In this document: in pieces, positions 3,811-34,950 of the stretch | Layout of the letters: each line of letters starts with the position of its first letter | How positions within the stretch are numbered: the stretch's first letter is position 1 | Virus record (IMG/VR): IMGVR_UViG_3300042889_001694 | Coordinates: 1 to 60,573 of that record | Direction: 5' to 3' (one strand) | Length of the DNA: 60,573 bases | DNA from: a virus | Lineage: Duplodnaviria; Caudoviricetes | Notes under the pieces: model-generated | What the model saw: only the letters and a program-made list of their open reading frames with translations | Database searches by the model: none | What the model was told of the DNA's origin: nothing | Translations under genes and position numbers: made by a program

Positions 3811-3923
3811 AAAGTTTTTTCTTTGGGATAAATAAAAATACAAGCACATTAGATTTTTTATCAACTCTGACAGAAAATTTTATCGGTGTCTTGTTTTAAG
3901 TTAAGTATATTTAAGGAGAAAGC

Positions 3924-4622: not shown

Positions 4623-4625
4623 TTT

Positions 4626-16378: not shown

Positions 16379-16393
16379 ATATCAGTGCAACCA

Positions 16394-16422
16394 TTGCGAT
16401 ACCACAGTGTGTAGTGTATAAT
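16394..16422 (+). promoter_or_regulatory. sigma70-type promoter for clpA
   Basis: TTGCGA-N17-TATAAT. Confidence 0.65.
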
Positions 16423-16447
16423 AACAATATGTCTTTCAAGGAAACAA

Positions 16448-18718
16448 ATGCAGAACAACCCCGAAATTGAGCAGATCATTGACAACGCAGTTCGGATTGC
16501 TAAAGATAAACATCACAAATATGTGTTAACTGAACACCTATTGGCCAGTATGTTAACATACGACCCTTTTAAAAATGTACTGGTTAAATTTGGCGCAGAC
16601 ATTGATACCCTCTCCAAGGAATTGGATGCGTATCTGGCCAGCCTAACAGGACTAGAACTGCACGATGAAGATCTACAACCTCGCAAGACCAACGCACTTG
16701 AGCGAGTGTTCAATCGTGCACTAACACAGGTGCTGTTCACTGGTCGACGCACAGTTACCACAGCTGATTTGTATCTGTCAATCATGGGCGAAACAAATAG
16801 CCATGCACATTATTTCATGCTCAAGTATGGCATCAACAAGATTGAGTTTGTCAAGTTCTGGGAACAGAACTACAATCATCGTGATGTAAAAATTACTGAT
16901 CAACAGGCTACTGAAATCCTACAAGAGTTTTGTACCAATGTAACTGAGTTGGCTCAGCAAGACAGCCTGGAACCAGTGATTGGTCGAGATCACGACATCA
17001 GCGAAATGATTGCTGTGTTGGCTCGTCGATTCAAGGCCAACGTATTGTTGGTAGGCGATCCAGGTGTGGGAAAAACTGCTTTGATCGAGGGCTTGGCCAC
17101 TCGTATTGCTCGCAACGATGTGCCAGAATTCCTCAAAGGCAACGAAGTGTGGAGCTTGGAAATTGGATCATTGCTGGCTGGCAGCAAGTATCGTGGGGAG
17201 TTTGAGGACAAGCTCAAACAGATCATTGCTGCCTTGGAGGCCAAGAAAAACTGTGTGTTGTTCATTGATGAGGCACACACCATGCGTGGTGCAGGATCAT
17301 CGGGACAGAGCAGCTTGGACTTTGCCAACATGATCAAACCTGCCATTACCAAGGGTGTGCTCAAGGTTGTGGCCAGTACCACCTGGGAAGAGTATTACGA
17401 AAGCTTTGAGAAGGATCGTGCACTGATGCGCAGATTCCATAGACTCACAGTTGACGAGCCCAACAATGAAGTTACTGAACAAATCCTTATTGGCTTGAGT
17501 CCAAGACTTGAGAAGTTTCACAATGTCATGATCGACACTGATGCTATCATAGCCGCAGTTGAACTCAGTGCTCGTTACATTCATGACAAAAAGAATCCGG
17601 ATAAATCAATTGATCTAATAGATTCAGCATCAGCACGTGAACGTGTGCGCGATTCAGCACAGCCAATCACTATTACTCGTGCGTTGATTCTAGCACAAGT
17701 CAGTAGGGCCACTGGTGTTCCCATGGATCATCTTGAGAATGCCAAGGAAAATACTCGCATTGTTGAGCTTGAAAGCAATATCAAACAACGACTGCACGGA
17801 CAAGACCAAGTGGTTGACACTGTGCTGGATCGTGTGTATGTGAGCTTTGCCGGCATTGGTAATGGCAAGAAACCCATGAGCAGTTTCTTGTTCCTGGGAC
17901 CAACTGGTACAGGCAAGACTGAACTGGCTCGGTTATTGAGTGAACACCTGGATATGAAATTGCTCAAATATGACATGAGTGAGTATCAGGAAAAACACAC
18001 TGTGTCGGGCTTGATTGGTGCTCCCCCGGGCTATGTGGGGTTTGAAGACGGTAACCTAAGTGGTGGCCGATTGATTTCAGACCTTAGCAAGAATCCCTTC
18101 AGCATTGTGTTGTTTGACGAGATTGAAAAAGCACACCCAGATGTCAGTAACATCTTGTTGCAGATGCTGGACGAAGGCCGTATTACAGGCTCAAATGGCA
18201 AAACAGTTGACTGCAAGAATACCATTGTTATCATGACCAGTAACCTGGGCGCACGTGATAATGAAAGCAACAACATTGGTTTTGGACAAAGCCTAGAACG
18301 GCAGGGCAGTGAGGACAAAGCAGTTAAAGATTTCTTCAAGCCCGAACTGCGCAACCGTATTGATGTGATTTGCAAGTTTGGTAAATTGGATACACTGGCC
18401 ATTAAAAAGATTGTGGTCAAGTTTATCGAAGAGGTCAAGGTCAGTCTAACAGCCAAGAACATTCGTTTGAATCTAACCGAATCTGCAATTGAATTCCTGG
18501 CAGCTCAAGGATATGATAGCAAAATGGGGGCTAGACCCCTGGCTCGTAAAATTGATGAATTGATCCGTGTGCCACTGAGCAAGCGTATTTTGTTTGAGAA
18601 ACTACAGGACATCACAGTCACATGTGATCTAGTGGGCGATGCATTGCAGTTTCATCTGTCCTCCCCAGTTGAAGTTATCCCCAAGGTAGATGCCAATGGC
18701 TTCATTGTTGTTGAGTAA
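16448..18718 (+). CDS. clpA: ClpA-like ATP-dependent Clp protease ATPase subunit
   Basis: Clp N-domain; two AAA+ modules (GDPGVGKT, GPTGTGKT); 'GSKYRGEFE', 'GAPPGYVGF'; IGF loop 'NNIGFG'; no ClpB-length middle domain. Confidence 0.9.
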   Translation: MQNNPEIEQIIDNAVRIAKDKHHKYVLTEHLLASMLTYDPFKNVLVKFGADIDTLSKELDAYLASLTGLELHDEDLQPRKTNALERVFNRALTQVLFTGRRTVTTADLYLSIMGETNSHAHYFMLKYGINKIEFVKFWEQNYNHRDVKITDQQATEILQEFCTNVTELAQQDSLEPVIGRDHDISEMIAVLARRFKANVLLVGDPGVGKTALIEGLATRIARNDVPEFLKGNEVWSLEIGSLLAGSKYRGEFEDKLKQIIAALEAKKNCVLFIDEAHTMRGAGSSGQSSLDFANMIKPAITKGVLKVVASTTWEEYYESFEKDRALMRRFHRLTVDEPNNEVTEQILIGLSPRLEKFHNVMIDTDAIIAAVELSARYIHDKKNPDKSIDLIDSASARERVRDSAQPITITRALILAQVSRATGVPMDHLENAKENTRIVELESNIKQRLHGQDQVVDTVLDRVYVSFAGIGNGKKPMSSFLFLGPTGTGKTELARLLSEHLDMKLLKYDMSEYQEKHTVSGLIGAPPGYVGFEDGNLSGGRLISDLSKNPFSIVLFDEIEKAHPDVSNILLQMLDEGRITGSNGKTVDCKNTIVIMTSNLGARDNESNNIGFGQSLERQGSEDKAVKDFFKPELRNRIDVICKFGKLDTLAIKKIVVKFIEEVKVSLTAKNIRLNLTESAIEFLAAQGYDSKMGARPLARKIDELIRVPLSKRILFEKLQDITVTCDLVGDALQFHLSSPVEVIPKVDANGFIVVE

Positions 18719-22504: not shown

Positions 22505-24121
22505 ATGAACATCAACGAACTAGAAACCTATCGATTAAGCGATGCAGTCAAGTTTAACAACACGTTAAACCCTAAACTGTGGCAAAACGAACAGCTACGG
22601 CCCGAAGTTAAACAAAAACTTTTGGCCATAGCTGACGATTTTCGCGAATTTCTTGGTATTGACGATCTTGAAATTCAAGATATCACTATCTCGGGAAGCA
22701 ATGCCGCTTACACATATACCCCATATAGTGACATAGATTTGCATCTAGTTGTTGACCTTGACAACGTTTGCAGTAGTGATGTAATGCGTGAGTTGTTTGA
22801 CGCTAAAAAGTATCAATACAATGATCAACACGATTACAAAATTGGCGGTTACGATGTTGAATTATATGTGCAAGATTCAGCCCAAGCACATCACAGTCAA
22901 GGCATCTACAGTTTATTAAACAACGACTGGGTTCGCGTTCCAAGTAGACGTTTGCCCAAGGTTGATGACATCAGTGTTAAGAACAAGTACGAAGATATTG
23001 CCGCACGTATTGATGATGCCATTGCTTCGGGTGATCTAGAACGCATGGACGCTATGCGTAACAAAATACGCACCATGCGTCAGGCAGGCCTAGATAAAAC
23101 TGGAGAGTTTGGGGCTGAGAATCTTGCGTTCAAGGTCTTGCGGGGCAACGGCAGCCTACAACGTTTGAGTGATGCTAGAGCCGCTGCCAAAGATAAGTTA
23201 ATGAGTTTGTCTGAGCGCAAGAAAAAGAGTCGTAAACGATCTGGTTACGGAAATTACTTTTTTCCCGGCTATTCATTTTATGGTAACGACTCCGCAGAAG
23301 GTGATGGCGGTGGCGGTGGTGAGAGTGTGAATGAAAACAAAGACATTAAAGAAGTTTTAAAACCGTTTATCAGTAGCTGTATCAAATACCTTGGTATTGA
23401 AAATCCCCCACGTATTTTTATCAAACGGGATCCTGAATGGACACGCAGGAATGGTACATTTGGCAAATTTGATCCAGCCGAGCATGCAATCACACTGGCA
23501 GTGGCAGGACGACACACACTAGATATCTTGCGCACACTGGCACATGAACTTACTCATGCCCGCCAATCTGAACAAGCAACCATGCCAGCTGATGCTGGAG
23601 AAACTGGGTCGCCTTATGAAGACGAGGCAAATGCCATGGCTGGACGTATCATGCGTCATTGGGTAGACCAGTATCCTGAGTTTTTTAAAGACATGCCCCT
23701 GGAAGAATCAATCAAGGATCGGTTGGCTGCTGTGGCCGCAGCCGCATGCATAGCCGGTACTCCAGGTTGTGCTACTACACAAGGCATGACAGCCGCTGAC
23801 GCTATCCGTGGTGTGCAAGCCGCAGGCACTGCGGCTCAAACCGTCAAGCGCATGGGTCGAGCCGGAGCCGAAGAAGAGATGATGCAACGACTCAAGAATG
23901 AATTGCGTCGACGACAGGGACAGGTGGTTCCCGAAGAAGTTCATGAACAATGCCCCGCGTGCGGTGGACCCATGTTCAATGAATTGCTGATCAACGAAAA
24001 ACAAGATGCCTGTTACTACAAAGTCAAGAGTCGTTACAAAGTATGGCCCAGTGCTTATGCCAGTGGTGCACTGGTACAGTGTCGCAAAAAAGGTGCTGCC
24101 AATTGGGGAAACAAAAAATGA
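22505..24121 (+). CDS. Modular protein: Pol-beta-type nucleotidyltransferase + HExxH metallopeptidase-like domain + small modules
   Basis: 'GSNA...SDIDLH...DVELYVQ'; 'AHELTH...EDEAN'; 'CPACGG'; C-terminal 'KVWPSAYASG'. Confidence 0.75.
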   Translation: MNINELETYRLSDAVKFNNTLNPKLWQNEQLRPEVKQKLLAIADDFREFLGIDDLEIQDITISGSNAAYTYTPYSDIDLHLVVDLDNVCSSDVMRELFDAKKYQYNDQHDYKIGGYDVELYVQDSAQAHHSQGIYSLLNNDWVRVPSRRLPKVDDISVKNKYEDIAARIDDAIASGDLERMDAMRNKIRTMRQAGLDKTGEFGAENLAFKVLRGNGSLQRLSDARAAAKDKLMSLSERKKKSRKRSGYGNYFFPGYSFYGNDSAEGDGGGGGESVNENKDIKEVLKPFISSCIKYLGIENPPRIFIKRDPEWTRRNGTFGKFDPAEHAITLAVAGRHTLDILRTLAHELTHARQSEQATMPADAGETGSPYEDEANAMAGRIMRHWVDQYPEFFKDMPLEESIKDRLAAVAAAACIAGTPGCATTQGMTAADAIRGVQAAGTAAQTVKRMGRAGAEEEMMQRLKNELRRRQGQVVPEEVHEQCPACGGPMFNELLINEKQDACYYKVKSRYKVWPSAYASGALVQCRKKGAANWGNKK

Positions 24122-24768
24122 GATATCGCGAAATACTAGAAGCCTGCTGGAAAGGCTACCACAAAGAAGGCATGAAAACCATGTTTGGCAAACGATATCC
24201 CAACTGCGTGAAAAATACCAACGAAGAGCTAGAAGAAGATCTGCGCAAGTGGTTTAAAGAGAAGTGGGTACGATTTGGCCCCGATGGCAAGATTCGCGGT
24301 GACTGTGCTAGAGGTGATGACAGTGAAGGCAAGCCCAAGTGTTTGCCACAAAGTAAAGCACAAAATCTAGGTAAAAAAGGTCGTGCAAGTGCGGCAGCAC
24401 GTAAGCGTAGACAAGATCCCAATCCAGAGCGCAGTGGCAAAGCCATTAATGTCAACACTAAAAAGAAAACCGACGAAGCGGTGTTAGACGAAAAATGGAG
24501 CCAAAAGTACAAGAGTTCAATAAACTGCGCCAGCCCCAAGGGCTTTAGCCAACGAGCACATTGCGCAGGCAAGAAAAAAAATGAAAGTGTAACCGAGGCC
24601 ACTGGCTACATTCCTGTTAATGATAAAGAAGCACGTGATCCAAGATACAGCATGGCCATAACACAAGACATCAAGCCCGGCGAAGTACAACGTCAGGCCG
24701 CCAAAATGGGATTTAAGACTGATGCAGCTGGTATTCCGCCCAAGTTAAACTCGTCTGGGAAGATATAA
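24118..24768 (+). CDS. Basic modular protein, probable internal head protein
   Basis: Starts MRYREILE (ATGA overlap); Lys/Arg-rich Cys-pair modules separated by xxE linkers. Confidence 0.7.
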   Translation: MRYREILEACWKGYHKEGMKTMFGKRYPNCVKNTNEELEEDLRKWFKEKWVRFGPDGKIRGDCARGDDSEGKPKCLPQSKAQNLGKKGRASAAARKRRQDPNPERSGKAINVNTKKKTDEAVLDEKWSQKYKSSINCASPKGFSQRAHCAGKKKNESVTEATGYIPVNDKEARDPRYSMAITQDIKPGEVQRQAAKMGFKTDAAGIPPKLNSSGKI

Positions 24769-24794
24769 TAAATAAACAAAACGGGTATTGATAT

Positions 24795-26813
24795 ATGCGA
24801 ATACATGAACTGACTAAATTAAATGAAACAACACTGGGAGGATTCCCGGTCAAGGTCTTGAACATTCAAGATCAAGGTGTTGAAGAAGCTGGAAATGCCA
24901 ACAGTGGTCGTCGTGGACCAAATTCTCCTCCTGACAATTCTCCAGTTGTACCTGGACGAGTAGAAAAAACTGCCACAGGTATACGGCATCATGCCGACCC
25001 AAGTCGGTACGGCGGCCACAGTCCCAAACCTGAAGATGATCGTTTGTTAGGTCCACAGCACAGATGGCGATTAGATCGTGCTGTGCGTGGTGTGGCAGAA
25101 GATCAAGTAAACGAATTGTTTGAGCCAACTCTAAATTACTATAAACTAAGCAACGGCAAAACAGTTCAAGCAAGTTATAGACCCACTCCCAATCAATCCC
25201 CGGTTCCGTTTACTGATGTCAAAGTATCCTATGTGAACCCTGCACTCAAACCGCAAGGCAGTAGTTTCGACAGCACCGGTGTTGCTGAACCCTGGACTAA
25301 TGCTCCAGATGGTGTGAAACAAGCAATTCAAAAATTTGTAATCCAACCACAGCAAAACGTGGCGGAAGGCTCAGACCAACAGTACGCCGTTACCATTGAC
25401 GCAATTGATCACGGTGTATTGGCACCTGTAACAGTTGTTGCTGGCAGTCAAGAAGAAGCAAAACAAAAAGCCATTGCTGGTGTTAAAGCATCAATGATCA
25501 AGCGTGGATATGAATTGATGGTGCGTAGTGTATCAGCCAAGCCCAGACAAGGTATGGCAGAAACGTCTATTTCTTCAGAAGTTAGCTTGCCTAAGTGGCA
25601 GATGGGATTGCCTGTGTTTGTCAAGCACCTTGGACAAAAAGGTGAGATCGCTTCGTTAGGTAACGATTTTGCAATTGTTGATGTTGGCATGCGGCAATAC
25701 CGAGTACCACTGAGTGGACTAAAGAGATATCCAAATAAAGGTGTGGCGGAAGCAATCAAGCTCAATGCACCACAACGCACAATACCACGTGACGAATTGC
25801 AGGGCTATGCTGACCGTATCAAGACTGGCACTAAAACAAAACGTGACAAGTTTGCCCCTATCATTCATGGCAGTAACATCAAGGCCATCACCAAAGACGA
25901 TGCCAATACCGAGTGGGACTTGGATGATTTAGCCAGTCAAATTACCACACGCCCACGTGCTATTCTTGGTACCAATGCTAAAATGGAAAAGTCAAAAACT
26001 GAAGGCGAAATCATTTATGACTTAACATTGCCTGCATTAAGTGGTATTGTTGTGGACGAAGACACTGGCGACTTTGTAGAGATTACCACTTGCCCAGGTG
26101 CAGGTGCTTGTCAGTTATTCTGCTATGCACGTAAAGGTGGATATGTGATGTTCCCCGCAAGCTCGATGTCAGCCGCACAAGCACTAAACTTCTTGGTGAA
26201 CGATCCCGAAGGATACACTGCTAGAGTCAACCAAGAAATCAAAACAATCAAGGCAAAAACTGACAAGGCCGGAGTACAACTGGTAGTTCGCTGGCATGAC
26301 GCTGGAGACTTCTTCAGCAAAGAATATTTGGATCTAGCTTATGGTGTGGCCAAATCCAATCCTGATGTGCAGTTTTATGCCTACACCAAAATGGGCGATG
26401 TTGCTACGGGTACTGCACCAGCAAACTTCACAATGAACTTCAGTTCTGGCAGCAAGCGCGGTGAAGAAAAGAAAGTTGAATTTTACAAACAACAAAATCC
26501 TGGTGCCACAGTCAAACAAGGTGTTACTGTGCCCAAGGACATGTTCTTTGACCTAATTGCACGCAAAGGCAACAGCTTGATCAAAGATGCCAAGGGGCGC
26601 ACACAGTTTGCCAGCTCTGAAGCTCTTGACACATTCAAACAACGTATTGCACAGCGATATCAAGTTAATCCCAAATCAATTATCACTTATGATCAGATGT
26701 TGGCAACGCCAGTGGGCACCAAACCCCAGTGGAATGTTATTGTGCAGCCGGGTGCTGGAGATCGTGCAGCCAACCGCAAAGATGTAGTTGATAGTTACTT
26801 AATGTTTCACTAA
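24795..26813 (+). CDS. Modular polyprotein with C-terminal Gp88-like Cys-cluster domain
   Basis: Five GVAE-like linkers; C-terminal 'CPGAGACQLFCYA', 'VRWHDAGDFF', 'FYAYTK'. Confidence 0.75.
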   Translation: MRIHELTKLNETTLGGFPVKVLNIQDQGVEEAGNANSGRRGPNSPPDNSPVVPGRVEKTATGIRHHADPSRYGGHSPKPEDDRLLGPQHRWRLDRAVRGVAEDQVNELFEPTLNYYKLSNGKTVQASYRPTPNQSPVPFTDVKVSYVNPALKPQGSSFDSTGVAEPWTNAPDGVKQAIQKFVIQPQQNVAEGSDQQYAVTIDAIDHGVLAPVTVVAGSQEEAKQKAIAGVKASMIKRGYELMVRSVSAKPRQGMAETSISSEVSLPKWQMGLPVFVKHLGQKGEIASLGNDFAIVDVGMRQYRVPLSGLKRYPNKGVAEAIKLNAPQRTIPRDELQGYADRIKTGTKTKRDKFAPIIHGSNIKAITKDDANTEWDLDDLASQITTRPRAILGTNAKMEKSKTEGEIIYDLTLPALSGIVVDEDTGDFVEITTCPGAGACQLFCYARKGGYVMFPASSMSAAQALNFLVNDPEGYTARVNQEIKTIKAKTDKAGVQLVVRWHDAGDFFSKEYLDLAYGVAKSNPDVQFYAYTKMGDVATGTAPANFTMNFSSGSKRGEEKKVEFYKQQNPGATVKQGVTVPKDMFFDLIARKGNSLIKDAKGRTQFASSEALDTFKQRIAQRYQVNPKSIITYDQMLATPVGTKPQWNVIVQPGAGDRAANRKDVVDSYLMFH

Positions 26814-26822
26814 GAGGTTTAT

Positions 26823-27650
26823 ATGAGAGTACAAGAATTTACCGACAACCTGCACACAGAAAATCATGTGAGCACAAAGAAAAAAACAGATGTGACAGAG
26901 AGCACAAAACAGACTCCCGAAAAAGAACTTGAGCGTTTGGGTCTACGTCAAAATGCACAGAAAAAAGCACCACTGCGAGACCAAGCCGCAACACAAGCTC
27001 GCATCCGTGAACTTGAAAAACAAATTGCCGACAAAAAGAAAAGTATGGCGGAAAACTACAACCCCGAGTACGATGACGAAGCAGGCATGGCTGAAAACAA
27101 TCTTGAAACGCTGGAACGTGCGGTTCGAGGCATCGATGACCTAATTCAATCAGGTGATAACTTGCCTGAATGGTGTCAAGAAAAGATTGCTGTGGCCAAA
27201 TCAATGTTGGTAAGTGTGTGGGACTATATGTATAGTGAAGAATCTTCTGACGAGGTAGATCCTGAAATTGACGCCATGTTTGAAGCCATGGACCAGTTGG
27301 CTGAAGAAGTGGCTCAGCGAGATGGTGTTGATGTTGATCAAGTGTGGGAAAGTTTTGAAGCCTTGCCAGACCATGTGCTGTACGAAACAGCGGCCTGGCG
27401 CAGAAAAGAAGGCAAGAGCAAAAAAGGCGGCCTGAATGCCAAGGGTGTGGCCAGTTATCGCAGAGAGAATCCTGGTAGCAAACTGCAAATGGCCGTGACC
27501 ACAAAGCCAAGTAAACTAAAGCCCGGTAGCAAAGCAGCCAAGCGCCGCAAATCATTCTGTGCTAGAATGGGCGGAGTAAAAGGCCCCATGAAGAAACCCA
27601 ACGGTGACCCTACTAGAAAAGCATTGGCATTGCGCAAATGGAATTGCTAG
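26823..27650 (+). CDS. Modular protein with acidic middle and basic C-terminal module
   Basis: Starts MRVQEF; 'LPEWCQEKI' module; 'GGLNAKG...RRKSFCARM...ALRKWNC' module. Confidence 0.75.
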   Translation: MRVQEFTDNLHTENHVSTKKKTDVTESTKQTPEKELERLGLRQNAQKKAPLRDQAATQARIRELEKQIADKKKSMAENYNPEYDDEAGMAENNLETLERAVRGIDDLIQSGDNLPEWCQEKIAVAKSMLVSVWDYMYSEESSDEVDPEIDAMFEAMDQLAEEVAQRDGVDVDQVWESFEALPDHVLYETAAWRRKEGKSKKGGLNAKGVASYRRENPGSKLQMAVTTKPSKLKPGSKAAKRRKSFCARMGGVKGPMKKPNGDPTRKALALRKWNC

Positions 27651-27651
27651 T

Positions 27652-28029
27652 ATGCGAGCACAAGAATTTGTAACAGAAGGTGCTGTTGAGGATTTGATAA
27701 AAGATTTAAAAAATCCTCATAGCTATGATGCAATAGATCATATGATGCAGACCATTGCAGACAAGTCAAATATCACTGCCAAGAGACTGCATGATCTTTT
27801 TGTAAAAAAATATAACATGACCCCAGACGAGTGGGTCAAAGACAGCATAGCAGAAAACTTTGCAGACGGCAAGGTAAAAGGCAAAAGCCGACCAGGTCGT
27901 GTAAAACGTGCTGGTGCCAGCTGCAATGGTTCAGTTACTGACCTAAGACAACGAGCAAAGAATGCATCGGGCGAACGTGCCAAAATGTATCACTGGTGCG
28001 CCAATATGAAATCAGGACGAAACAAATGA
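27652..28029 (+). CDS. Two-module small protein
   Basis: Starts MRAQEFVTE; 'SIAE|NFADGK...' basic module. Confidence 0.72.
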   Translation: MRAQEFVTEGAVEDLIKDLKNPHSYDAIDHMMQTIADKSNITAKRLHDLFVKKYNMTPDEWVKDSIAENFADGKVKGKSRPGRVKRAGASCNGSVTDLRQRAKNASGERAKMYHWCANMKSGRNK

Positions 28030-28499
28030 GAGCATGTGAATTCATAATAGAAGGCACACTGAATGTAGATGTGCCCAATGAAGAGTGGCTGAATAATGCC
28101 ATTGAGTATGCCAAGGAACATAGCCCTGATCGTCGCGGATTACCTTACATGGGCAAGACCACTGCTACTGTTAGGCAAGTAGAAGTTCCTGTAACCAAGC
28201 TGGCCAGAATACCCGGCATGCGTAATGAACAACAAAATGTACGTCAAGCAGACTTAGCAGCCATTATGAAAATAATGAAGGACACTGGCAAGCTACCACT
28301 ACATGGCCACACTGGCGAAGAATACAAGCCTTTTATCAATGTGGCCTATGATGGCAGCGCATGGGTCAACGAAGGCAATCATCGTATCATGGCTGCATAT
28401 AGATTGGGTTGGGATTCCTTGCCCGTGGAAATCAGCTATTTTGATGGTGGCGAAAGAGTCGAGTCTGGACCAATGTACCCTGCAAAAATTGGACTATAG
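28026..28499 (+). CDS. ParB/Sulfiredoxin-like domain protein
   Basis: Starts MRACEFIIE; 'PFINV...VNEGNHRIMAAYRLGW..LPV' ParB-N signature. Confidence 0.7.
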   Translation: MRACEFIIEGTLNVDVPNEEWLNNAIEYAKEHSPDRRGLPYMGKTTATVRQVEVPVTKLARIPGMRNEQQNVRQADLAAIMKIMKDTGKLPLHGHTGEEYKPFINVAYDGSAWVNEGNHRIMAAYRLGWDSLPVEISYFDGGERVESGPMYPAKIGL

Positions 28500-28524
28500 C
28501 ACGCCCATGTGATAATTACAAGTG

Positions 28525-29439
28525 ATGAAAGACACACTTGTAATAGCGTTTGCTGGAGGTACATACGGATCTTACCTGGAATGGGTATTGACCACACTGG
28601 CCACAGATGTTGAGATAATTCCGCCATTTGAAGTAACGGGCCCAATGCAAGGTAATAGTCACAACACTGAGCTGACATGGCATCTAGTGAACATGGACGG
28701 ATTTGTTCAATACATGTCTGCTGCAGATACTCGATTGACAGCAAGGATTCATCCCAAAACAAAATCTACAGAAAGCCTAATAGGTAATATTGAGCACATG
28801 CTTGATCACTGCACTCGGGCCATACTGTTATACCCTAGCAAGTCAACAGAATTGCTGTGCATAAACAATTATTTTCAAAAAATAGACAAAGATTGGTGGG
28901 CAGCCCAATTTCTTGAAGGGCATATTGATCCAGCAAAAGTTTATGATAATTGGCCCACAATGGCCGGTATTCCTATAGAACAGACACCGGCTTGGATACG
29001 TCGAGAGTTTCTAAGTCACTATTTGCTTCCGGCTTGGCACGATCAAATTGAATGGGGGCTTGACAACACCTGGCATCATGATCAATGCTTGATAGTGTAT
29101 GTTGATGAGTTGTTGTTTGACTTCCCCAACACCATTGATCGTATACAGAAATTTTGGAACAAGCCCTGGGTTAAGTCAGTTGATCAACTGATACCATATC
29201 ATGAGCAAATGATTGGCTTGCAGCTCAACATTGGCCAGGATCAACTCTGTAAAGATATTATCAATTCAGTATGTGACACAGCTTTTGACATCACCTGGGA
29301 GCCATTGCCAATGGCCAGTCAAGTATGGATACAAGCAACGTTGCGAGAATTGGGGTTTGATATTCACTGTGATGGTCTTGATGAATTCCCTAGCTCCAGT
29401 GATCAGTTGCGCGGACTGTTGTACAGCAATAAATCATAA
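28525..29439 (+). CDS. Sulfotransferase-like hypothetical protein
   Basis: N-terminal 'IAFAGGTYGSYLEWVL' loop; TAATTA upstream. Confidence 0.55.
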   Translation: MKDTLVIAFAGGTYGSYLEWVLTTLATDVEIIPPFEVTGPMQGNSHNTELTWHLVNMDGFVQYMSAADTRLTARIHPKTKSTESLIGNIEHMLDHCTRAILLYPSKSTELLCINNYFQKIDKDWWAAQFLEGHIDPAKVYDNWPTMAGIPIEQTPAWIRREFLSHYLLPAWHDQIEWGLDNTWHHDQCLIVYVDELLFDFPNTIDRIQKFWNKPWVKSVDQLIPYHEQMIGLQLNIGQDQLCKDIINSVCDTAFDITWEPLPMASQVWIQATLRELGFDIHCDGLDEFPSSSDQLRGLLYSNKS

Positions 29440-29447
29440 ATATTCAC

Positions 29448-29651
29448 ATGCGAGCACAAGATTTTATCAAGACTGTACAAGGACTAAAAACATACATTGT
29501 CAAGGTCAAATTGAAGCAGCCTGGCTATACCAACATTATTGATACCACGGTGCAGGCTCGTACTCATGAAATGGCACGCAAGATTATCCGTGCACAATAC
29601 AACAATTCTCAGGTCATTGTGGGACAGCCCAAAGAGATAAAATCTCGCTAA
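29448..29651 (+). CDS. Small hypothetical protein
   Basis: Starts MRAQDFI; TAAATA 5 nt upstream. Confidence 0.75.
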   Translation: MRAQDFIKTVQGLKTYIVKVKLKQPGYTNIIDTTVQARTHEMARKIIRAQYNNSQVIVGQPKEIKSR

Positions 29652-29658
29652 ATATCGG

Positions 29659-29955
29659 GTGAAAACTCAATTTGTACTGGCCACCTTTAACATACGCTGT
29701 CAATGGGCAGAAAAACCACCTGTGTTTCGTGTTTATGTAAACGATGAAATGTTTACTGAACGTGAATGGGCCTGGGACAATTCTATTCATTTGAATCAAA
29801 TGCTACAAATACAAGCACCGCCTGGCGAATACAAAATTGAAGTTTGTCCTGTGGGCAAAACCACTGCTGAGTTCATAACCGATGGGTACACCATTGAGCA
29901 TGGCACCGGACGTTGGATTGACAATAGATTGGTGATTGAACATGAGAGCACGTGA
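29659..29955 (+). CDS. Hypothetical protein
   Basis: GTG start 4 nt after TAAATA. Confidence 0.65.
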   Translation: MKTQFVLATFNIRCQWAEKPPVFRVYVNDEMFTEREWAWDNSIHLNQMLQIQAPPGEYKIEVCPVGKTTAEFITDGYTIEHGTGRWIDNRLVIEHEST

Positions 29956-30121
29956 ATTTATTAACGAAGACTCTGGGGCCACCTGCTCGGGTAATATAGC
30001 CACAATGGCAGTACCCATGGGTGAAGTAATATCTAGACAGTTTGACAATTTCAAAACTAAATATGCAAATGCCTATAAAAAACCCTGGGTACAAAGGAAA
30101 TTAAAAAATGCTCGCAAATGA
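29942..30121 (+). CDS. Small hypothetical protein
   Basis: Starts MRAREFINE. Confidence 0.7.
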   Translation: MRAREFINEDSGATCSGNIATMAVPMGEVISRQFDNFKTKYANAYKKPWVQRKLKNARK

Positions 30122-30548
30122 TTTAAAAACGCTACTGGCCTCACAATATGCATTGAGTGTCAAGGCTCAAAACTTTCACTGGAATGTAGAAGGTCCCGAC
30201 TTTGCTCAATACCATGACTTCTTTGCCAACTTTTATGAAGAAGTATACAGTGCAGTTGATAAAATTGCTGAGTATGTGAGAACTCTGCAGGAATATAGCC
30301 CAGGATCATTTGAACGATTTCAGGAACTCAGCGTAATTCCTGGACAGACTAAAATTCCCAGAGCTCGGCTCATGATTGAAGAATTACTCGAAAATAACAA
30401 CACCATGATTGATTTATTGAATCAATGTTTTGCATCTGCTGAACAAGAAAACAATCAAGGTATTGCCAACTTTATAGCCGAACGTCTTGATGCGCATGGC
30501 AAGAACGGCTGGATGTTGCGCAGTTTTCTAAAGGATGATCGAGCATGA
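30108..30548 (+). CDS. dps: Dps family ferritin-like DNA-protection protein
   Basis: 'HWNVEGPDF..YHDFF', 'DKIAE', 'H.K..WML'. Confidence 0.9.
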   Translation: MLANDLKTLLASQYALSVKAQNFHWNVEGPDFAQYHDFFANFYEEVYSAVDKIAEYVRTLQEYSPGSFERFQELSVIPGQTKIPRARLMIEELLENNNTMIDLLNQCFASAEQENNQGIANFIAERLDAHGKNGWMLRSFLKDDRA

Positions 30549-31162
30549 GCAACGACATTAGAGATATTTTAAATCGCTTCAAGCAAGTGGAAGAGGGGCT
30601 CGACGCCAATCAAACCAGTGTCAAGCAACTGCCGGCATTGTTCAAACCCAAAGATATCAGTCCAGTACTTGGCAGCAAAACTGATCCCAAAAATCCAATG
30701 AAGGGTTATTTTGTAGGCGGTGAAAGCATTGACGACGATGTGGAAGAAGACACAAGTTCGTTTGGGCATGAGCTTGATCTTGACGCCAAGCAACTGGAGT
30801 TGGATCCTGTGCACCCAGTAGCCGAAGATGTAATCAGTGCAGTAAAGAAAAAGCTAGGTGATTATCTCAAGACTATTGAGGATGAGATACGAACAGACCC
30901 TGACCTCAAAGACAAGGTCAACACCAACATTGATCACGTGGGCCCAGTTGTCAAAACATTGACCACAGATGATGGTCACGAAATTAAAATTCATGGCAAT
31001 GAAGATGACGGATTCAGGATCACTATCAAGAACAAGCCATCAAAATCAAAATTTGAAAATCTAGATCATGCAGTAATAGCATGCGAAATGTTTTGCAATC
31101 GCCGACGTCAACAACCAGTTGAAACCCAAGACTACGTAGAAGAAAAAAATGATTATCAATAA
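30545..31162 (+). CDS. Hypothetical acidic modular protein
   Basis: ATGA overlap; internal 'VEE', 'VAE' sites. Confidence 0.72.
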   Translation: MSNDIRDILNRFKQVEEGLDANQTSVKQLPALFKPKDISPVLGSKTDPKNPMKGYFVGGESIDDDVEEDTSSFGHELDLDAKQLELDPVHPVAEDVISAVKKKLGDYLKTIEDEIRTDPDLKDKVNTNIDHVGPVVKTLTTDDGHEIKIHGNEDDGFRITIKNKPSKSKFENLDHAVIACEMFCNRRRQQPVETQDYVEEKNDYQ

Positions 31163-33293
31163 CCTATTCCAAGAGAGTGCAGACTCTCGTCCAGATCGTA
31201 CCAAACACATTGTCATGGTAACCGTGACTGATCCGCAAGGCACAGTAGTGACTCAACGCAAAGAGCCAATTCAACGCCGTGCTGTGGTGTCAGCTGTGGA
31301 TCGCAACAGTGCAATTGATTCAGCTATTAACTTTTACAAAAAGCAAGGATATCGGGTTCAAGACCATCACTATGTTGGGCCCAAAGACGTTGATGAGGGC
31401 ATTGTTGGAGATCTAGCATACAAAGCTGGATATGGTATGGGCAAAGTTGCTGGTCGTGGCGTTGCTGGTTACAATGCTGGCAAAGCATCAAACCAACCTG
31501 CACAAGCACAACAAACACCAGCAGTTGCTACTTCTGCTAGCACTCAATCGTTGCCTGCCCGCAAGGCTCCAGATGCATTTGCAGCTCGCCGTGCTGCCGC
31601 AGCCAAGGCAGCACAAGACAGTATGACACCTGTACCAACTGTGTCTCCCAACACGTTGCCAGCAAGCCCAGAAGAAATTCGCAAAGCCAAACAAGCTTCT
31701 GCCACTGCGGCAGCAAACATTGACATGGGTCGCAGTCGCGAACTTACTCCCAAACAAGTGTTTGACCGATTAAAACAGCGCCGAATGGCCAAGCAAGGTG
31801 TTGCAGAAGGCGCAGAGTTTGGCGCCTACTACAGCGAGCAAGTGGCACAACAAATCTTTGACAAGCGTCAAGATATCAGTTCTGAAGAAGAAGTGTTGAA
31901 TCAAGCATACCACATTGTGGCAAATGATCAAGGCCAAAAATCTGCTCGTTATATGTTCAACTATGATGAAGACTTTTCCGGCGACGTTGTGTCTAATTAC
32001 TTCAGTTTGCAAAAGCAAGGTGTGGCGGAAGGCTCACAACAAGTTGATTCACTGGTCACTGACGCATTAAAAATAATGCAAGGCCCAAAATTAAATGATG
32101 CTGTACAAGCATTAAAGACTGTGCTGGGAGATAGAGAATACAATAGCCGTCGTGGCTTTTATAATTTCTATGTTAAACAAATCATCGACATGTATGGTCA
32201 ACAAGGCGTAAATGAAGGCGTAGGAGACAGTCCAGTGGCCGGTGCTATTACTCGCAGAATATTAATGCAACGCACCGACTTATTATCTAAGTACGGTCCA
32301 GAAAAAGTAACAGCCGCAATTGACGAAGTTGCTGACTTTGTAGGTGATGTAGAAGAAATTGGCAGTAGTGATGTAAGTGGTTGGGTTCGCCATGTAGAGC
32401 AAATGTTGGGCAACATGCAGGAAGGTGTGGCGGAAGGCGAGCAAGGCATGAGCCGTGCTGCCAAGGGCTATGAGAAGTATGGCAAAGCAGGCATGCAGGC
32501 CCTGGCCAAGGCAGGTCGTGAAGGCGCTAGTGAAAAGACTTTAGATGCCATTCGCGACCGGCATGACAACTACAATGAAAGCTTGGATGAAATGCGTGAT
32601 CGTAGAGATGCTTATCAAAGAGATTACGATAGTAGTGTGGCAGGTATGGGCAAACGTCAATCATATGCTTATCAACAAGATGGCGGCGGCAACGATGAAC
32701 GTCACGACCTAGATCCAACAGAATGGTACATTGTTAAGGATGGTAAAATGTTCAAAGTAACAGTGTATCCTAACCAAGTACAGTCAGCAATGTCACAGGG
32801 ATTCAGTCCCAGCAGAGAAGAAGCCAAAGCAAAAGCAGGACTAGCAGAAGGCCTAGGCTCCAAGTTGGCAGGACTAAGTCTTGCCGGGGCCATGGCACTT
32901 GGTTCAGCAGGCGCCAATGCTAGAGTTACTCCTGACGGTCAAGGTGGCTATACCGGTGGGTTAAAGCCAACTGCAACAATGACCGCCCCATCAGACAACA
33001 AACCAGCAGCAGAAGCACCAAAAGGTTTTAGCAAAGAATATCTACAAAAAGCCGCAGATCCAAATCGTTTTGGTAGATACATGATCAGTGTTGAAAAAGC
33101 ACAAGAACTGTTAAAAAACATGCAAGAAGGTGTTGCAGAAGGCCGTACAACACCCAGCGATTTAAATTTGTGGAATCGTGCCAAAATTGTTGCAGAAAGC
33201 AAGTTTAACGTGTATCCTAGCAAGCAAGCAAACATTTATGCCAATAAATGGTATCAACAACACGGCGGCACTTGGATCAATGGGAAATCTTAA
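31149..33293 (+). CDS. 714-aa modular polyprotein, probable internal head protein
   Basis: At least six (Q/E/A)G(V/L)(A/N)EG linkers separating unrelated modules. Confidence 0.8.
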   Translation: MIINNLFQESADSRPDRTKHIVMVTVTDPQGTVVTQRKEPIQRRAVVSAVDRNSAIDSAINFYKKQGYRVQDHHYVGPKDVDEGIVGDLAYKAGYGMGKVAGRGVAGYNAGKASNQPAQAQQTPAVATSASTQSLPARKAPDAFAARRAAAAKAAQDSMTPVPTVSPNTLPASPEEIRKAKQASATAAANIDMGRSRELTPKQVFDRLKQRRMAKQGVAEGAEFGAYYSEQVAQQIFDKRQDISSEEEVLNQAYHIVANDQGQKSARYMFNYDEDFSGDVVSNYFSLQKQGVAEGSQQVDSLVTDALKIMQGPKLNDAVQALKTVLGDREYNSRRGFYNFYVKQIIDMYGQQGVNEGVGDSPVAGAITRRILMQRTDLLSKYGPEKVTAAIDEVADFVGDVEEIGSSDVSGWVRHVEQMLGNMQEGVAEGEQGMSRAAKGYEKYGKAGMQALAKAGREGASEKTLDAIRDRHDNYNESLDEMRDRRDAYQRDYDSSVAGMGKRQSYAYQQDGGGNDERHDLDPTEWYIVKDGKMFKVTVYPNQVQSAMSQGFSPSREEAKAKAGLAEGLGSKLAGLSLAGAMALGSAGANARVTPDGQGGYTGGLKPTATMTAPSDNKPAAEAPKGFSKEYLQKAADPNRFGRYMISVEKAQELLKNMQEGVAEGRTTPSDLNLWNRAKIVAESKFNVYPSKQANIYANKWYQQHGGTWINGKS

Positions 33294-33648: not shown

Positions 33649-34950
33649 ATGACTACACCTTTAAACGACTATAAAATCGCCGACATTTCTCTGGCTCCCT
33701 GGGGACACAAAGAAATTGCAATTGCCGAGCACGAAATGCCTGGCTTACACGCTGTATTAGAACAATACAAAAACAAACAACCACTAAAGGGTGCACGTAT
33801 TGTGGGCAGTTTGCACATGACAATTCAAACTGCTGTACTGATCAAGGTGCTGGTGGCCTTGGGTGCAAGTGTACGCTGGAGCTCGTGTAATATCTTTAGC
33901 ACACAAGATCAGGCTGCCGCTGCCATTGCCGATCTGGGTATTCCTGTATTTGCCTGGAAGGGCGAGACGGAAGAGGAATACTGGTGGTGCATTGAACAAA
34001 CTGTGCGTGGACCAGACGGTTGGACACCCAACATGATACTTGATGATGGGCACGACTTAACTGGCTACATTCACGACAAACACCCTGACCTGATTCCCGG
34101 TATCAAGGGTGTTACAGAAGAAACCACAACAGGTATCCACAAATTATTGGAACGCATTGCCGCTGGTACACTGCGGTTGCCTGCTATCAACGTAAACGAC
34201 TCGGTGACCAAGACCAAGTTTGACAACTTGTATGGTTGCCGTGAAAGCCTAGTTGATGCTATCAAACGTGCCACTGATGTTATGATTGCCGGCAAAGTTG
34301 CTGTGGTGGCCGGTTACGGCGATGTGGGCAAAGGTTCGGCACAGGCCTTGCGAGCACTCAGCGCACAAGTTTGGGTTACAGAAGTTGATCCTATTTGTGC
34401 ACTGCAAGCTGCCATGGAAGGTTACCGAGTGGTCACAATGGATTATGCCAAGGACAAAGCTGATATTTTTGTTACCGCCACAGGCAACATTGGTGTTATC
34501 ACACGTGAGCACATGTTGTGCATGAAGGAAAATGCCATTGTTTGCAACATTGGCCACTTTGACAGCGAAATTGATATTGCTGGTATTCAGGATGCCAAGT
34601 GGGACGAAATCAAACCCTTGGTAGATCATGTTACACTTGTTAACGGTCGCAAGATTGTTGTACTAGCCAAAGGACGCTTGGTGAACTTGGGTTGTGGCAC
34701 AGGTCACCCCAGCTTTGTTATGAGCAACAGCTTTACCAATCAGGTGTTGGCTCAGATCGAGATGTTCAACAACACCGATCAATATGAAACTGGAAAAATT
34801 TATTTGTTGCCCAAGCATCTTGATGAGCAAGTGGCACGACTTCACTTGGAAAAGGTTGGTGCAATGTTGACCACATTGGACCAGCGCCAAGCAGACTATA
34901 TTGGAGTAGATGTTGCCGGACCGTTCAAACCCGACACTTATCGCTATTGA
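33649..34950 (+). CDS. ahcY: S-adenosyl-L-homocysteine hydrolase
   Basis: '[10 protein letters not shown]', 'SCNIFSTQD', 'EETTTG', '[11 protein letters not shown]', 'GYGDVGKG', 'GHPSFVMS', 'YRY' end. Confidence 0.97.

Follow-up and report, generated by a model that had tools for sequence, protein, structure and literature searches.

A candidate internal-protein locus of a giant T4-related lake phage whose protein modules are linked, and exchanged, at a DNA-conserved joint

We analysed a window of 60,573 nucleotides from an uncultured giant T4-related phage of lake water (IMG/VR record IMGVR_UViG_3300042889_001694). Its part between about 22.5 and 33.3 kb is probably a hypervariable internal-protein (head cargo) locus, with T4-like leaders and with joints that a gp21-type protease would cut. 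Comparison of its polyproteins with those of related phages shows recombination between relatives at the joint DNA. We found no published description of joint-linked, shuffled head-cargo polyproteins.

We propose that the 8-11 residues with which most cluster genes begin form a leader, related to the capsid-targeting sequence of T4, that would load each protein onto the prohead's scaffold core. ORFs A and B would be polyproteins, in which a single leader brings in a chain of six to seven small unrelated modules. The T4 gp21-type prohead protease, acting after Glu in hydrophobic-x-Glu, would cut the joint [K/Q/E]-Q-G-V-A-E/G between modules (here and below, a slash follows the Glu of a predicted cut), yielding separate proteins of 6-16 kDa and, from A, a 39 kDa GP88-family domain; the freed proteins would leave the head together with the DNA. 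The near-fixed 18 nucleotides of the joint are also the crossover point for in-frame gain, loss, duplication and reordering of modules among relatives. We infer from sequence that the cluster proteins would be cleaved, packaged and injected, and that they may have some anti-defence role.

Results

The cluster spans positions 22505 to 33293 approximately and is thus wider than first described; all of its genes listed here are on the plus strand. It starts with a 538-aa multi-domain gene (22505..24121) that begins with MNINELE and combines an N-terminal match to phrog_36119, a metallopeptidase-like stretch with the motif HELTH (HExxH) and a C-terminal DUF5872-like module; Pfam gave weak matches for it that do not reach the cut-off (DUF6782, E 0.0024; NTP_transf_2, E 0.0085). 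This gene is longer in relatives, with 862 aa in G001 and 1772 aa in L255, the latter including an 18-mer joint. The 216-aa gene that follows (24118..24768) overlaps the upstream stop with its start (ATGA) and has the leader MRYREILE/A; in L177 the start of its module is preceded by an internal ...KVGE/ACWKGY. Between ORF A and ORF B lie genes of 275 aa (26823..27650; leader MRVQEF..., DUF6321 module at the C-terminus), 125 aa (27652..28029; leader MRAQEFVTE/G), 157 aa (28026..28499; leader MRACEFIIE/G, weak ParB-like PHROG match, E 0.0025), 67 aa (29448..29651; leader-like start MRAQDF), 59 aa (29942..30121; leader MRAREFINE/D) and 205 aa (30545..31162). By blastn, the 205-aa gene is kept directly 5' of a variable polyprotein in L037, L043, L044, L045 and L072, and it thus marks the orthologous position in these relatives.

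The N-terminal leader is a second motif common to the cluster genes, one that was absent from the list of the preliminary description. Six ATG starts of the form MR..[ED][FL] occur between 24795 and 29942, and the only two others in the 60 kb each lie within a longer ORF. Leaders such as MRAQEFVTE/G resemble the T4 capsid-targeting sequence (MKTYQEFIAE/A), those of A (MRIHELTKLNE) and B (MIINNLFQE) being more divergent variants; the T4 starts, translated from NC_000866, are MKTYQEFIAE for IPII and IPIII, MELITELFDE for Alt and MAKINELLRE for gp24. The region syntenic to the window in the Agrobacterium phage Atu_ph07 has neither leaders nor joints. Head genes were not found in the 60-kb window, and the T4 late-promoter consensus, TATAAATA, does not occur anywhere in it.

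ORF A (672 aa, 24795..26813) starts with the leader MRIHELTKLNE/T and contains five joints: the variant GVEEA (A1, 24876..24890, in QGVEEA, aa 28), GVAED (A2, 25089..25103, in RGVAED, aa 99), NVAEG (A3, 25356..25370, in QNVAEG, aa 188), GMAET (A4, 25551..25565, in QGMAET, aa 253) and GVAEA (A5, 25740..25754, in KGVAEA, aa 316). They delimit pieces of 31, 71, 89, 65 and 63 aa. Immediately 3' of A5 begins a 353-aa GP88-family domain (Pfam); at the position matching this joint, DKGVAEA is found in the G001 orthologue. Among relatives of ORF A the C-terminal GP88 domain is conserved and the N-terminal modules are variable. ORF B (714 aa, 31149..33293; leader MIINNLFQE/S) matched no Pfam family and is made of seven pieces of 220, 74, 62, 73, 138, 97 and 50 aa. 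Its six joints are GVAEG (B1, 31797..31811, in QGVAEG, aa 217; DNA GGTGTTGCAGAAGGC), QGVAEG with the canonical 18-mer CAAGGTGTGGCGGAAGGC as its DNA (B2, 32016..32033, aa 291), GVNEG (B3, 32205..32219, in QGVNEG, aa 353), GVAEG (B4, 32424..32438, in EGVAEG, aa 426), GLAEG (B5, 32838..32852, in AGLAEG, aa 564) and GVAEG (B6, 33129..33143, in EGVAEG, aa 661).

Both ORFs and every motif instance listed in the preliminary description were recovered, as were the repeats that it had reported in their DNA: AAGGTGTGGCGGAAG occurs three times (25738, 32017 and 32422), AAGGTGTTGCAGAAGGC twice (31795 and 33127), and GTGGCGGAAGGCTCA, common to joints A3 and B2, at both 25359 and 32022. The modules of about 60-140 aa that it had proposed correspond to the pieces between joints (62-138 aa), but two pieces are larger, the one that opens B (220 aa) and the one that closes A (353 aa).

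In 119 unique contexts from 40 non-identical ORFs, the joint has the consensus [K/Q/E]-Q-G-V-A-E-G, with Q at -1 in 81, V in 99, A in 95 and G after the Glu in 74. The joint is typical of a whole clade of T4-related lake phages of about 285-355 kb. When the six frames of the window were searched for G[VLMI][AENS]E[GADT], four matches fell in A, six in B and one elsewhere (39039). Chance, low complexity or an assembly artefact as the origin of a motif concentrated in two window ORFs was ruled out: G[VLI]AEG, sought in 1.9 Mb from 122 sources, occurs 128 times in coding-strand ORFs and never in ORFs on the other strand, the exact 18-mer is found in at least 120 separately assembled IMG/VR contigs, and the ORF B region in 24 lake-water runs.

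We then compared the order of modules between relatives. The blastn blocks of ORF B are bounded by joints, and their order differs in L003, where it runs fifth, fourth, third, and in L037, where module 6 lies immediately 5' of module 3. Internal homology ends fall within 8 aa of a joint in 41.5% of 610 cases (null 11%, maximum 14.4%), and 47 of 61 recent breakpoints, taken from blocks of at least 95% nucleotide identity, lie within 9 nt of one (null mean 7.4%, maximum 16.4%). Likewise, the divergence of lake-metagenome contigs from the window falls at joints: at 31809 for B1, at 32014, 32034 and 32037 for B2, at 32206 and 32229 for B3, and at 32421 and 32422 for B4; blastn blocks start or end at B5, and at B6 a lake contig has a joint at 33130. 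With module order differing among relatives and homology ends clustering at the joint, the gain, loss and exchange of modules postulated in the preliminary description, with breakpoints at the joint, held up on comparison.

Conservation of the joint is seen in its DNA and not only in its protein sequence. Indeed, 27 of 43 unique-context QGVAEG sites, drawn from loci retrieved by protein similarity and not by the 18-mer, are the identical 18-mer, although site counts are not counts of independent events, since there is relatedness among many of the loci or among the samples that yielded them. The codons used depart from expectation for Ala (GCG 36, expected 3.1), Val (GTG 34, expected 10.2), the first Gly (GGT 40, expected 18.7) and the last Gly (GGC 36, expected 15.3). 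GCG had been noted as uncommon: of the 1147 Ala codons in 46 long window genes, only 63 (5%) are GCG, compared with 4 of 9 in the A and B joints. Identity at four-fold sites is 0.74 over all joint pairs and 0.41-0.45 in modules of 40-70% amino acid identity. As a control, we used 93 leaders of the form MRA.[ED]F[IVL].E, for which this value is 0.46 and the Ala codons are GCA (59), GCT (17), GCC (15) and GCG (2). The suspected conservation of synonymous sites is thus real and specific to the joint. Since conservation over six residues, or 18 nt, far exceeds what hydrophobic-x-Glu needs, a protease alone cannot account for it.

These data raise the question of whether the 18-mer is chiefly a nucleic-acid signal, such as a nuclease or recombinase target, a hot spot or a translational pause, the coding of QGVAEG being secondary. 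Such a signal would agree with the strong fixation of synonymous sites, rare codon included, with its lack in leaders, presumed to be protease sites too, and with breakpoints inside the 18-mer. We nevertheless consider it quite unlikely: in 150 of 151 occurrences the 18-mer is read in the single frame QGVAEG within an ORF of at least 100 aa, it is absent from the opposite strand of the window, as are AAGGTGTGGCGGAAG, AAGGTGTTGCAGAAGGC and GTGGCGGAAGGCTCA, and protein variants with other codons retain G-hydrophobic-x-E. A signal of this type is in any case compatible with the cargo locus that we propose.

A leader-like start was found in 46 of 109 joint-bearing ORFs and in 17 of 433 other G001 ORFs (odds ratio 17.9, p 9e-23), the pattern being loose and starts being taken as the first ATG, so that some may be wrong. 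The same modules begin at the residue after Glu, whether this is the leader Glu of a stand-alone gene or the joint Glu of a polyprotein, as expected if both set the mature N-terminus. Among 24 leader contexts with an internal homologue beside a joint, the register was exact in 13, as in MRAQEFIIE/GKLSVDVPNEEWLQ and KQGVAE/GKLSVDVPNEEWLQ (92% identity). The mature part of the 157-aa gene (28026..28499) is likewise an internal polyprotein module in relatives, as ...PGLTE/STLSVDVPNEQWLQ in L196 (75% identity) and behind KQGVAE/ in L206. The joint has Val at P3, where the T4 rule has Leu or Ile, and Val is found at this position in at least 16 of 93 clade leaders as well.

According to PMC9026906, gp21 cleaves after the Glu of L/I-X-E, head targeting needs no more of IPIII than its first 10 residues, and Alt is a packaged protein with a cut at either end. 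T-even internal proteins are described as diverse, with the leader as their only common part and with plastic loci (PMC3012670, PMC12373910, PMC2839356). Peptidase_S77, the T4 gp21-type protease, was found in five of five large relatives of the phage studied here, and in G001 Portal_T4, S77 and Gp23 are arranged in the T4 gene order; this protease is known only from the relatives, whose nucleotide identity to the window is 67-88%. The T4-like leaders, the S77 protease of the relatives and the equal register of leaders and joints together suggest that the joint is a protease site.

An alternative is that the proteins stay uncut as multi-domain ("polyvalent") proteins, the joint being a flexible hinge and recombination DNA without VAE/G proteolysis. 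Recombination is the sole function shown for the joint, a protease site needs no DNA-level conservation, which the leaders lack, and whole multi-domain virion proteins are known, for example the N4 virion RNA polymerase (PMC5512222). We judge this alternative unlikely, given that Q-G-V-A-E-[G/A/D/S] ends in the same hydrophobic-x-Glu plus small residue that is seen in these phages' leaders, and that modules begin right after Glu behind both. Leader and joint are even fused in some proteins (MRATEFIIEGVAEG, MRINEILVEQGVAEG), and several polyproteins stop 12-21 aa past the last joint, a segment that looks like a removable tail.

If the joints are cut, another protease might do so, in the cytoplasm or after injection: either a host enzyme or the HExxH domain of the gene at 22505..24121. 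The first cluster gene does have the HELTH motif and weak matches to metallopeptidase families of Pfam, and self-processing through such domains has been proposed for polyvalent phage proteins (PMC5512222). It is nonetheless very unlikely that the cut would be of this origin, as these matches are under the curated cut-offs, it is T4 gp21 that by rule cuts after the Glu of hydrophobic-x-Glu, all five large relatives encode a protease of this type, and the leaders look like known gp21 substrates. Altogether, the reading first given to this stretch is supported: to the recombination seen at the joint DNA we would add, by inference, a protease site at the joint and injected cargo in the modules.

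Discussion

The cluster is similar in several respects to T4 with its IPI, IPII, IPIII and Alt proteins. The leader core is alike (MKTYQEFIAE/A and MELITELFDE/D in T4; MRAQEFVTE/G, MRAREFINE/D and MIINNLFQE/S here), relatives of this phage combine a gp21-type S77 protease with a T4-type portal/capsid module, the cargo is made of unrelated proteins with the leader as only common part, and its genes occupy a variable locus apart from the head genes. The sizes are also of the same order, with pieces of 6-16 kDa predicted here and internal proteins of about 8, 10 and 20 kDa in T4. In contrast to T4, where each cargo gene gives one protein, up to seven modules follow one leader here, with a fixed six-residue joint between them, whose DNA is itself conserved and serves as the crossover point for module exchange. 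The leader is also one residue shorter than that of T4, and the present phage is known from sequence alone.

Shuffling at T-even internal-protein loci and of T4-type PeSL cassettes was described by Arbiol (2010) and reportedly also by Repoila (1994) and Comeau (2014). As PMC2839356 presents them, such plastic loci and cassettes rely on short conserved border DNA that shuffles variable genes, internal-protein genes included, in fixed loci. PeSL-type elements are there intergenic promoter/stem-loop cassettes that move whole genes, whereas the joint is an in-frame coding 18-mer that moves protein modules.

The polyvalent proteins of Iyer et al. 2017 (PMC5512222) are, like the polyproteins studied here, long and rich in unrelated domains whose combinations change fast, and it has been proposed that they are packaged, enter with the DNA and undergo proteolytic processing; the HExxH domain and the weakly ParB-like module of the cluster add to this likeness. 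That paper defines them by a set of known enzyme domains together with peptidase domains for self-processing, whereas the modules described here are small, lack a Pfam family and would be processed by the prohead protease. The word "linker" is absent from the text of PMC5512222.

In phiKZ, 201phi2-1 and SPN3US, a diverged gp21 homologue cuts many head-internal proteins after Glu at a short motif, and some inner-body or ejection proteins are cut at several sites (PMC9026906). As described there, these cuts trim proteins or remove propeptides, and exchangeable module arrays with a DNA-conserved joint do not figure in that description. The three phages also belong to a lineage that differs from that of the phage studied here.

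RNA viruses and retroviruses make polyproteins as single translation products that a viral protease cuts at short sites, and integrons exchange gene cassettes at a short conserved site, the non-coding attC, by means of a dedicated integrase. The likeness of the cluster to both would be a functional analogy, without homology, in which the joint is a site that is itself coding.

An in-frame linker recurs in ORFs A and B

The preliminary description had identified two polyproteins, ORF A (24795-26813, plus strand, 672 aa) and ORF B (31149-33293, plus strand, 714 aa), and both are present. All of the motif instances listed for them were also found, at aa 28, 99, 188, 253 and 316 of A and at aa 217, 291, 353, 426, 564 and 661 of B, and the repeated DNA strings occurred with the counts and positions claimed and not once on the opposite strand. 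We call the linker, whose consensus is [K/Q/E]-Q-G-V-A-E-G, the joint, and the pieces between joints modules, numbered from the N-terminus; in the sequences below a slash marks the presumed cut after Glu. When six-frame ORFs of at least 100 aa were searched for G[VLMI][AENS]E[GADT], A contained 4 matches, B 6 and the remaining 56 kb or so only 1. A repeat finder also recovered the joint independently, as family D1 (6 copies of 24 nt). As had been suspected, GCG is uncommon here, with 63 of the 1147 Ala codons (5%) of 46 long window genes; it accounts for 4 of the 9 Ala codons in the joints of A and B. An internal translation start at the joint was considered and rejected: the sole in-frame GTG lies 1 nt past AAGG, and no conserved start follows it.

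A clade-wide joint

In IMG/VR, scans with protein patterns yielded 36 loci for B and 471 confirmed relatives for A, 80 of the latter being kept; the largest contigs among the relatives' loci reach 355 kb. Over 122 sources including the window (1.9 Mb), G[VLI]AEG was found 128 times in plus-strand ORFs and 0 times in minus-strand ORFs, and 40 non-identical ORFs contained at least two joints. The joint and leader motifs were defined by our own regular expressions, and the counts of sites and breakpoints given here and below are not counts of independent events, many contigs being related or coming from related samples. In 119 unique contexts the consensus residues Q, V and A were present 81, 99 and 95 times, respectively, and the residue after the joint Glu was G in 74, A in 25, D in 12, S in 6 and T in 2. 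Pieces flanked by joints on both sides had a median length of 80 aa (interquartile range 64-131).

The window is collinear with positions 56-108 kb of a 342-kb relative, G001, at 67-88% nucleotide identity, and this synteny is patchy exactly at 24.5-33.3 kb. In the whole genome of G001 the canonical joint occurs only in three genes at 82-89 kb, which are the orthologues of the window cluster, and in one gene at 270.6 kb. The joint is a feature of an entire clade of T4-related lake phages.

The window, which is the entire record (a contig of 60,573 nt), is devoid of head genes; the T4-type head module was observed in relatives, and Peptidase_S77, the family of the T4 prohead protease gp21, was found in all five large relatives tested (285-355 kb, two of them with terminal repeats). 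In G001 the head genes follow the order Portal_T4, two small acidic or short genes, S77, a 362-aa coiled-coil gene and Gp23, which is the T4 order 20-67-68-21-22-23. Judged by DNA polymerase, Sinorhizobium phage Phosso (49.5%) is the nearest cultured phage, ahead of Agrobacterium phage Atu_ph07 (46.5%) and then Rak2-like phages. Neither leaders nor joints occur in the part of Atu_ph07 that is syntenic to the window (DnaJ, Clp, then DNA polymerase), and the matches of B among cultured phages were confined to two cyanophages and to 9% of its length.

Other features of this genome are worth recording. A DnaJ gene adjoins a two-ring Clp/ClpB-like AAA+ protein at 15581-18718, and Atu_ph07 has the same pair upstream of its own DNA polymerase gene. 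A full-length S-adenosyl-L-homocysteine hydrolase (33649-34950; Pfam AdoHcyase, E 1.9e-129) separates the putative cargo cluster from the DNA polymerase gene, and a B12-binding radical SAM protein (58448-60463) ends an extended block of genes for sugars and nucleotide sugars. The T4 late promoter has the consensus TATAAATA, for which the window contained 0 matches.

The joint is fixed as DNA

We then compared the synonymous sites of the joint with codon usage, and the result bore out the suspicion that the joint is fixed as DNA; the leaders remain at background. For the site and codon counts, loci fetched through protein similarity only were used. The identical 18-mer CAAGGTGTGGCGGAAGGC encoded 27 of the 43 unique-context QGVAEG sites. 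Compared with the usage of the same ORFs, the joint codons were strongly biased: GCG was observed 36 times versus 3.1 expected, GTG 34 versus 10.2, GGT for the first Gly 40 versus 18.7 and GGC for the last Gly 36 versus 15.3. Four-fold-site identity, taken over all joint pairs whatever their flanks, was 0.74, compared with 0.41-0.45 in modules of 40-70% amino acid identity. The exact 18-mer was present in at least 120 IMG/VR contigs; among the matches listed, it was read as QGVAEG in an ORF of at least 100 aa in 150 of 151 occurrences (118 new loci), and the ORFs holding it had a median length of 562 aa.

The leaders provided an internal control. In 93 unique leaders of the form MRA.[ED]F[IVL].E, Ala was encoded by GCA (59), GCT (17), GCC (15) and GCG (2), and four-fold identity was 0.46, equal to background, meaning that a presumed protease site does not by itself fix the DNA. 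Synonymous fixation is thus specific to the joint, and the contrast between a leader conserved as protein only and a joint conserved as DNA offers a clear example of synonymous sites being shaped by selection or homogenisation. Joints that retain the common 18-mer remain in the exchange pool, which by itself could be enough to preserve this sequence; a dedicated enzyme may also take part.

The joint as the site of module exchange

The preliminary description had proposed that modules are gained, lost and exchanged at the linker, and comparison of orthologous loci agreed with it: module order and content vary among relatives, with breakpoints at the joint. The blastn blocks of the B gene were bounded by joints (31793/4-32032/4, 32014/7-32206/19, 32200/22-32426/38, a block ending at 32836/46, and 32847-33122/43), and the closest relatives of separate blocks lay on different contigs and in different orders. 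In one relative (L037) module 6 of B directly precedes module 3, and in another (L003) the order is module 5, 4, 3. The gene upstream of B (30545-31162) is kept in five relatives (L037, L043, L044, L045 and L072), in each of which the polyprotein downstream of its orthologue has a different module composition.

The ends of protein homology also fell near the joint: 41.5% of 610 unique internal ends were within 8 aa of it, compared with 11% on average and at most 14.4% for random positions (200 trials), left ends clustering at the motif start and right ends at the motif end. Recent breakpoints, defined as the ends of blocks of at least 95% nucleotide identity between different polyprotein genes, were within 9 nt of the joint in 47 of 61 unique contexts (null mean 7.4%, maximum 16.4%, 500 trials); this set includes loci picked for the 18-mer, and the null was computed with the joint density found in the respective ORF. 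Several of the other recent breakpoints were at variant joints such as KAVAEG and KDVAED. Since any recombination between two joints keeps the frame, module gain, loss, duplication and reordering all give intact proteins. In one relative (L191), two polyprotein genes (2192-4078 and 4421-5389) have in common a joint-terminated module of 167 nt with 99.4% identity, which is a duplication or an exchange inside one genome.

The B region was present in 24 lake-water metagenome runs, and there was no RNA run among these 24. In four lake runs, loose ends of contigs were located at 31809, 32014, 32034/37, 32206, 32229 and 32421/22. One lake contig joins 32033 to 32418, thereby skipping 384 nt, that is modules 3 and 4, in frame, and another goes from 33130 back to 32447; these joins, whose short sides are 20 and 36 nt, probably come from other lake phages with the same modules elsewhere. 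The summed contig depth of module 3 (32031-32216) was several times that of its flanks in the four runs, which indicates that this module is common to several co-occurring phages. A 3-nt deletion at 32440, right after joint B4 (32424-32438), was seen in contigs of three of the four runs and is an in-frame length change at a module border.

Families and structures of the modules

None of the ten single modules submitted to Pfam (all those of B and modules 3-5 of A) gave a match at cut-off, and matches in PHROGs were to families of unknown function only. Some of these (727, 3477 and 10346) are long multi-module families, and the part of them that is matched differs from one window gene to another. 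The C-terminal domain of A (25752-26810) belongs to Pfam GP88 (E 7.5e-32) and is kept in about 80 relatives, the preceding modules being variable. Its model was of good quality (pLDDT 87.4, pTM 0.86); in a comparison with PDB folds none passed E 0.001, the best having E 0.023. The domain contains three invariant cysteines, Cys114, Cys120 and Cys124 (CX5CX3C), together with an invariant WHDAGDFF stretch, and these residues point to a possible enzyme that binds a metal or a cluster.

The most widespread module is the end of module 5 of B, with an invariant DE.H.LDP..W...KDGKM core. An AlphaFold2 model of aa 470-567 of B, a part of this module, had a mean pLDDT of 62; residues 1-47 were below 50, and the last 45 residues or so (pLDDT about 80-85) formed, with moderate confidence, a hairpin and two helices. 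The ESM Atlas model of the whole of B (pTM 0.19, mean pLDDT 0.53) gave no usable feature match, and an alignment-based model of B was dropped after two MAFFT alignments misplaced most of the homologous fragments. The Prochlorococcus phage P-SSM4 encodes a very basic 461-aa multi-module protein, PSSM4_160 (L260, 1742-3127), which has a DUF6321 module in common with the window gene at 26823-27650; as annotated, PSSM4_160 contains no joints and no leader.

Leaders of the putative cargo genes and their register with the joint

The repeat finder also returned gene starts, as family D5. On both strands of the 60 kb, eight ATGs open the pattern MR..[ED][FL]; six are real gene starts within 24795-29942 and the remaining two are inside longer ORFs. 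The window leaders include MRAQEFVTE/G, MRACEFIIE/G, MRAREFINE/D, MRVQEFTDNLHTE/N and MRYREILE/A, as well as MRIHELTKLNE/T for A, MIINNLFQE/S for B and MNINELE/T for the first gene of the cluster; one gene starts with MRVQEF. G001 has MRAREFIAE, MRAREFITE and MRATEFIVE. In T4 (translated from NC_000866), IPII and IPIII start with MKTYQEFIAE/A, IPI with MKTFKEFTS and Alt with MELITELFDE/D, and gp24, gp22 and gp21 with MAKINELLRE/S, MLKEQLIAE/A and MNEPQLLIE/T, respectively. The window starts resemble the T4 capsid-targeting sequence, being MKTYQEFIAE-like leaders of about 10 residues that end in hydrophobic-x-Glu; the leaders of A and B are of the Alt/gp24 type, a looser likeness than that of the other window leaders.

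Taking the first ATG as gene start, a leader-like start was found in 46 of 109 joint-bearing ORFs with distinct N-termini versus 17 of 433 joint-free ORFs of G001 (loose leader pattern; odds ratio 17.9, p 9e-23); among the latter 17 are the capsid protein, one head-core gene and four further cargo-like genes. Leader and joint were even found fused in one protein, as in MRATEFIIEGVAEG (L202) and MRINEILVEQGVAEG (L219).

For 24 distinct leader contexts, the sequence after the leader Glu has a joint-adjacent homologue inside a polyprotein; 13 of these homologues begin right after the joint Glu, and 4 more follow another Glu at a presumed cut. Stand-alone MRAQEFIIE/GKLSVDVPNEEWLQ corresponds to KQGVAE/GKLSVDVPNEEWLQ in a polyprotein (92%), MKINEIISE/DWNKVNKQDKTDGL to KQGVAE/DWQKVNRHDKTDGL (85%) and MKAREFITE/AVEDRTSYQVAKIL to EQGVAE/APEDRTSYQVAKIL (65%), and the window gene at 28026-28499, MRACEFIIE/GTLNVDVPNEEWLN, corresponds to PGLTE/STLSVDVPNEQWLQ of L196 (75%). 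Such an equal register is expected if leader and joint define the same mature N-terminus, and it is the strongest evidence, of an indirect kind, for cleavage at the joint.

Some observations concern the arrangement of these genes. The starts at 24118 and 28026 overlap the preceding stop as ATGA, which suggests that the putative cargo genes are closely packed so that their translation is coupled. A ferritin/Dps-like gene without a leader (30108-30548; Pfam Ferritin, E 1.6e-23) sits midway in the cluster, flanked by the small leader gene at 29942 and by the gene that precedes B. Far from its main cluster, G001 has two tandem genes (265935-266695) starting with MRAREFIAE and MRAREFITE, a second, small cargo-like site.

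A proposed model for loading, cutting and exchange

The joint, its fixation as DNA, the exchange at it, the leaders and their equal register emerge from the comparison of sequences; the steps that they suggest in the virion are as follows. A single leader would load the whole chain of modules onto the prohead core, the S77 protease would cut each VAE/G to give pieces of 6-16 kDa, plus one of 24 kDa from B and one of 39 kDa from A, and the freed pieces would be injected. We put forward only tentatively, with more doubt than belief, that the 18-nt joint is a selected dual-use element, serving both as an in-frame DNA "splice site" for a population-wide trade in effector modules, maybe aided by a sequence-specific nuclease or a recombination hot-spot activity, and as the code for a protease site that frees the modules in the head.

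If true, this dual-use joint would be the equivalent of the integron at the level of protein modules, and it would provide a natural blueprint by which a single tag brings several proteins into a capsid. As the module border is fixed as DNA, any recombination between two borders preserves the reading frame, and such borders would explain how giant phages rapidly renew a large injected arsenal. The dozens of small orphan proteins are candidates for host takeover in the first minute or for anti-defence, and the leader with its predicted cleavable joints may offer a ready design for multi-protein packing in T4-type heads.

Comparison with known systems

In the limited literature collection searched, the joint was not described: full-text matches to QGVAEG or GVAEG included none on phages, and, within the same collection, a search for such a polyprotein in connection with jumbo-phage prohead proteases and ejection proteins led to papers on SPN3US, in which the word polyprotein did not occur.

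Shuffling at short conserved DNA has its nearest precedent in the T-even IP loci and PeSL cassettes, whose elements are intergenic (PMC2839356). In PeSLs, the shuffled genes are bordered by an intergenic promoter and a stem-loop terminator, whereas the joint lies within the ORF and in frame (150 of 151 occurrences, among the matches listed). For packaged proteins of many domains, the closest precedent is the polyvalent proteins, as far as the part of that source available describes them (Iyer et al. 2017, PMC5512222). Like these, which combine 2-15 distinct domains variably, A and B are made of 6-7 pieces, and architectures differ among 40 relatives. From the conflict repertoire of polyvalent proteins (MuF, ART, ArdC-N, DdrB-ParB, MPTase and others) nothing reached its Pfam cut-off in B or in modules 3-5 of A, GP88 in A being the only family assigned; weak HExxH and ParB-like signals were seen in neighbouring genes, not in A or B.

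The T4 internal proteins and Alt, together with their leader and with gp21, form the closest system. According to excerpts of the sources, T4 leaders load proteins on the prohead core and gp21 removes them after Glu; the internal proteins, each encoded by its own gene, exit together with the DNA and inhibit the restriction enzymes of the host (PMC3012670, PMC9026906, PMC12373910), and their loci are known to vary (PMC3012670, PMC12373910). One of these excerpts further states that gp21 cuts after Glu in L/I-X-E, that Asp in place of this Glu prevents processing in T4, that the first 10 residues of IPIII are enough for head targeting, that leader residues 4 and 7 act in targeting and 8 and 10 in processing, that Alt is packaged and cut at both ends, and that leader fusion already packages foreign proteins such as GFP (PMC9026906). 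The neighbouring leader genes of the window likewise have only the leader in common, their bodies being unrelated, and lie in a hypervariable locus. What would be new is that, judging from the sequences, the loading-and-cutting logic of T4 appears to have been scaled up to chains of swappable modules.
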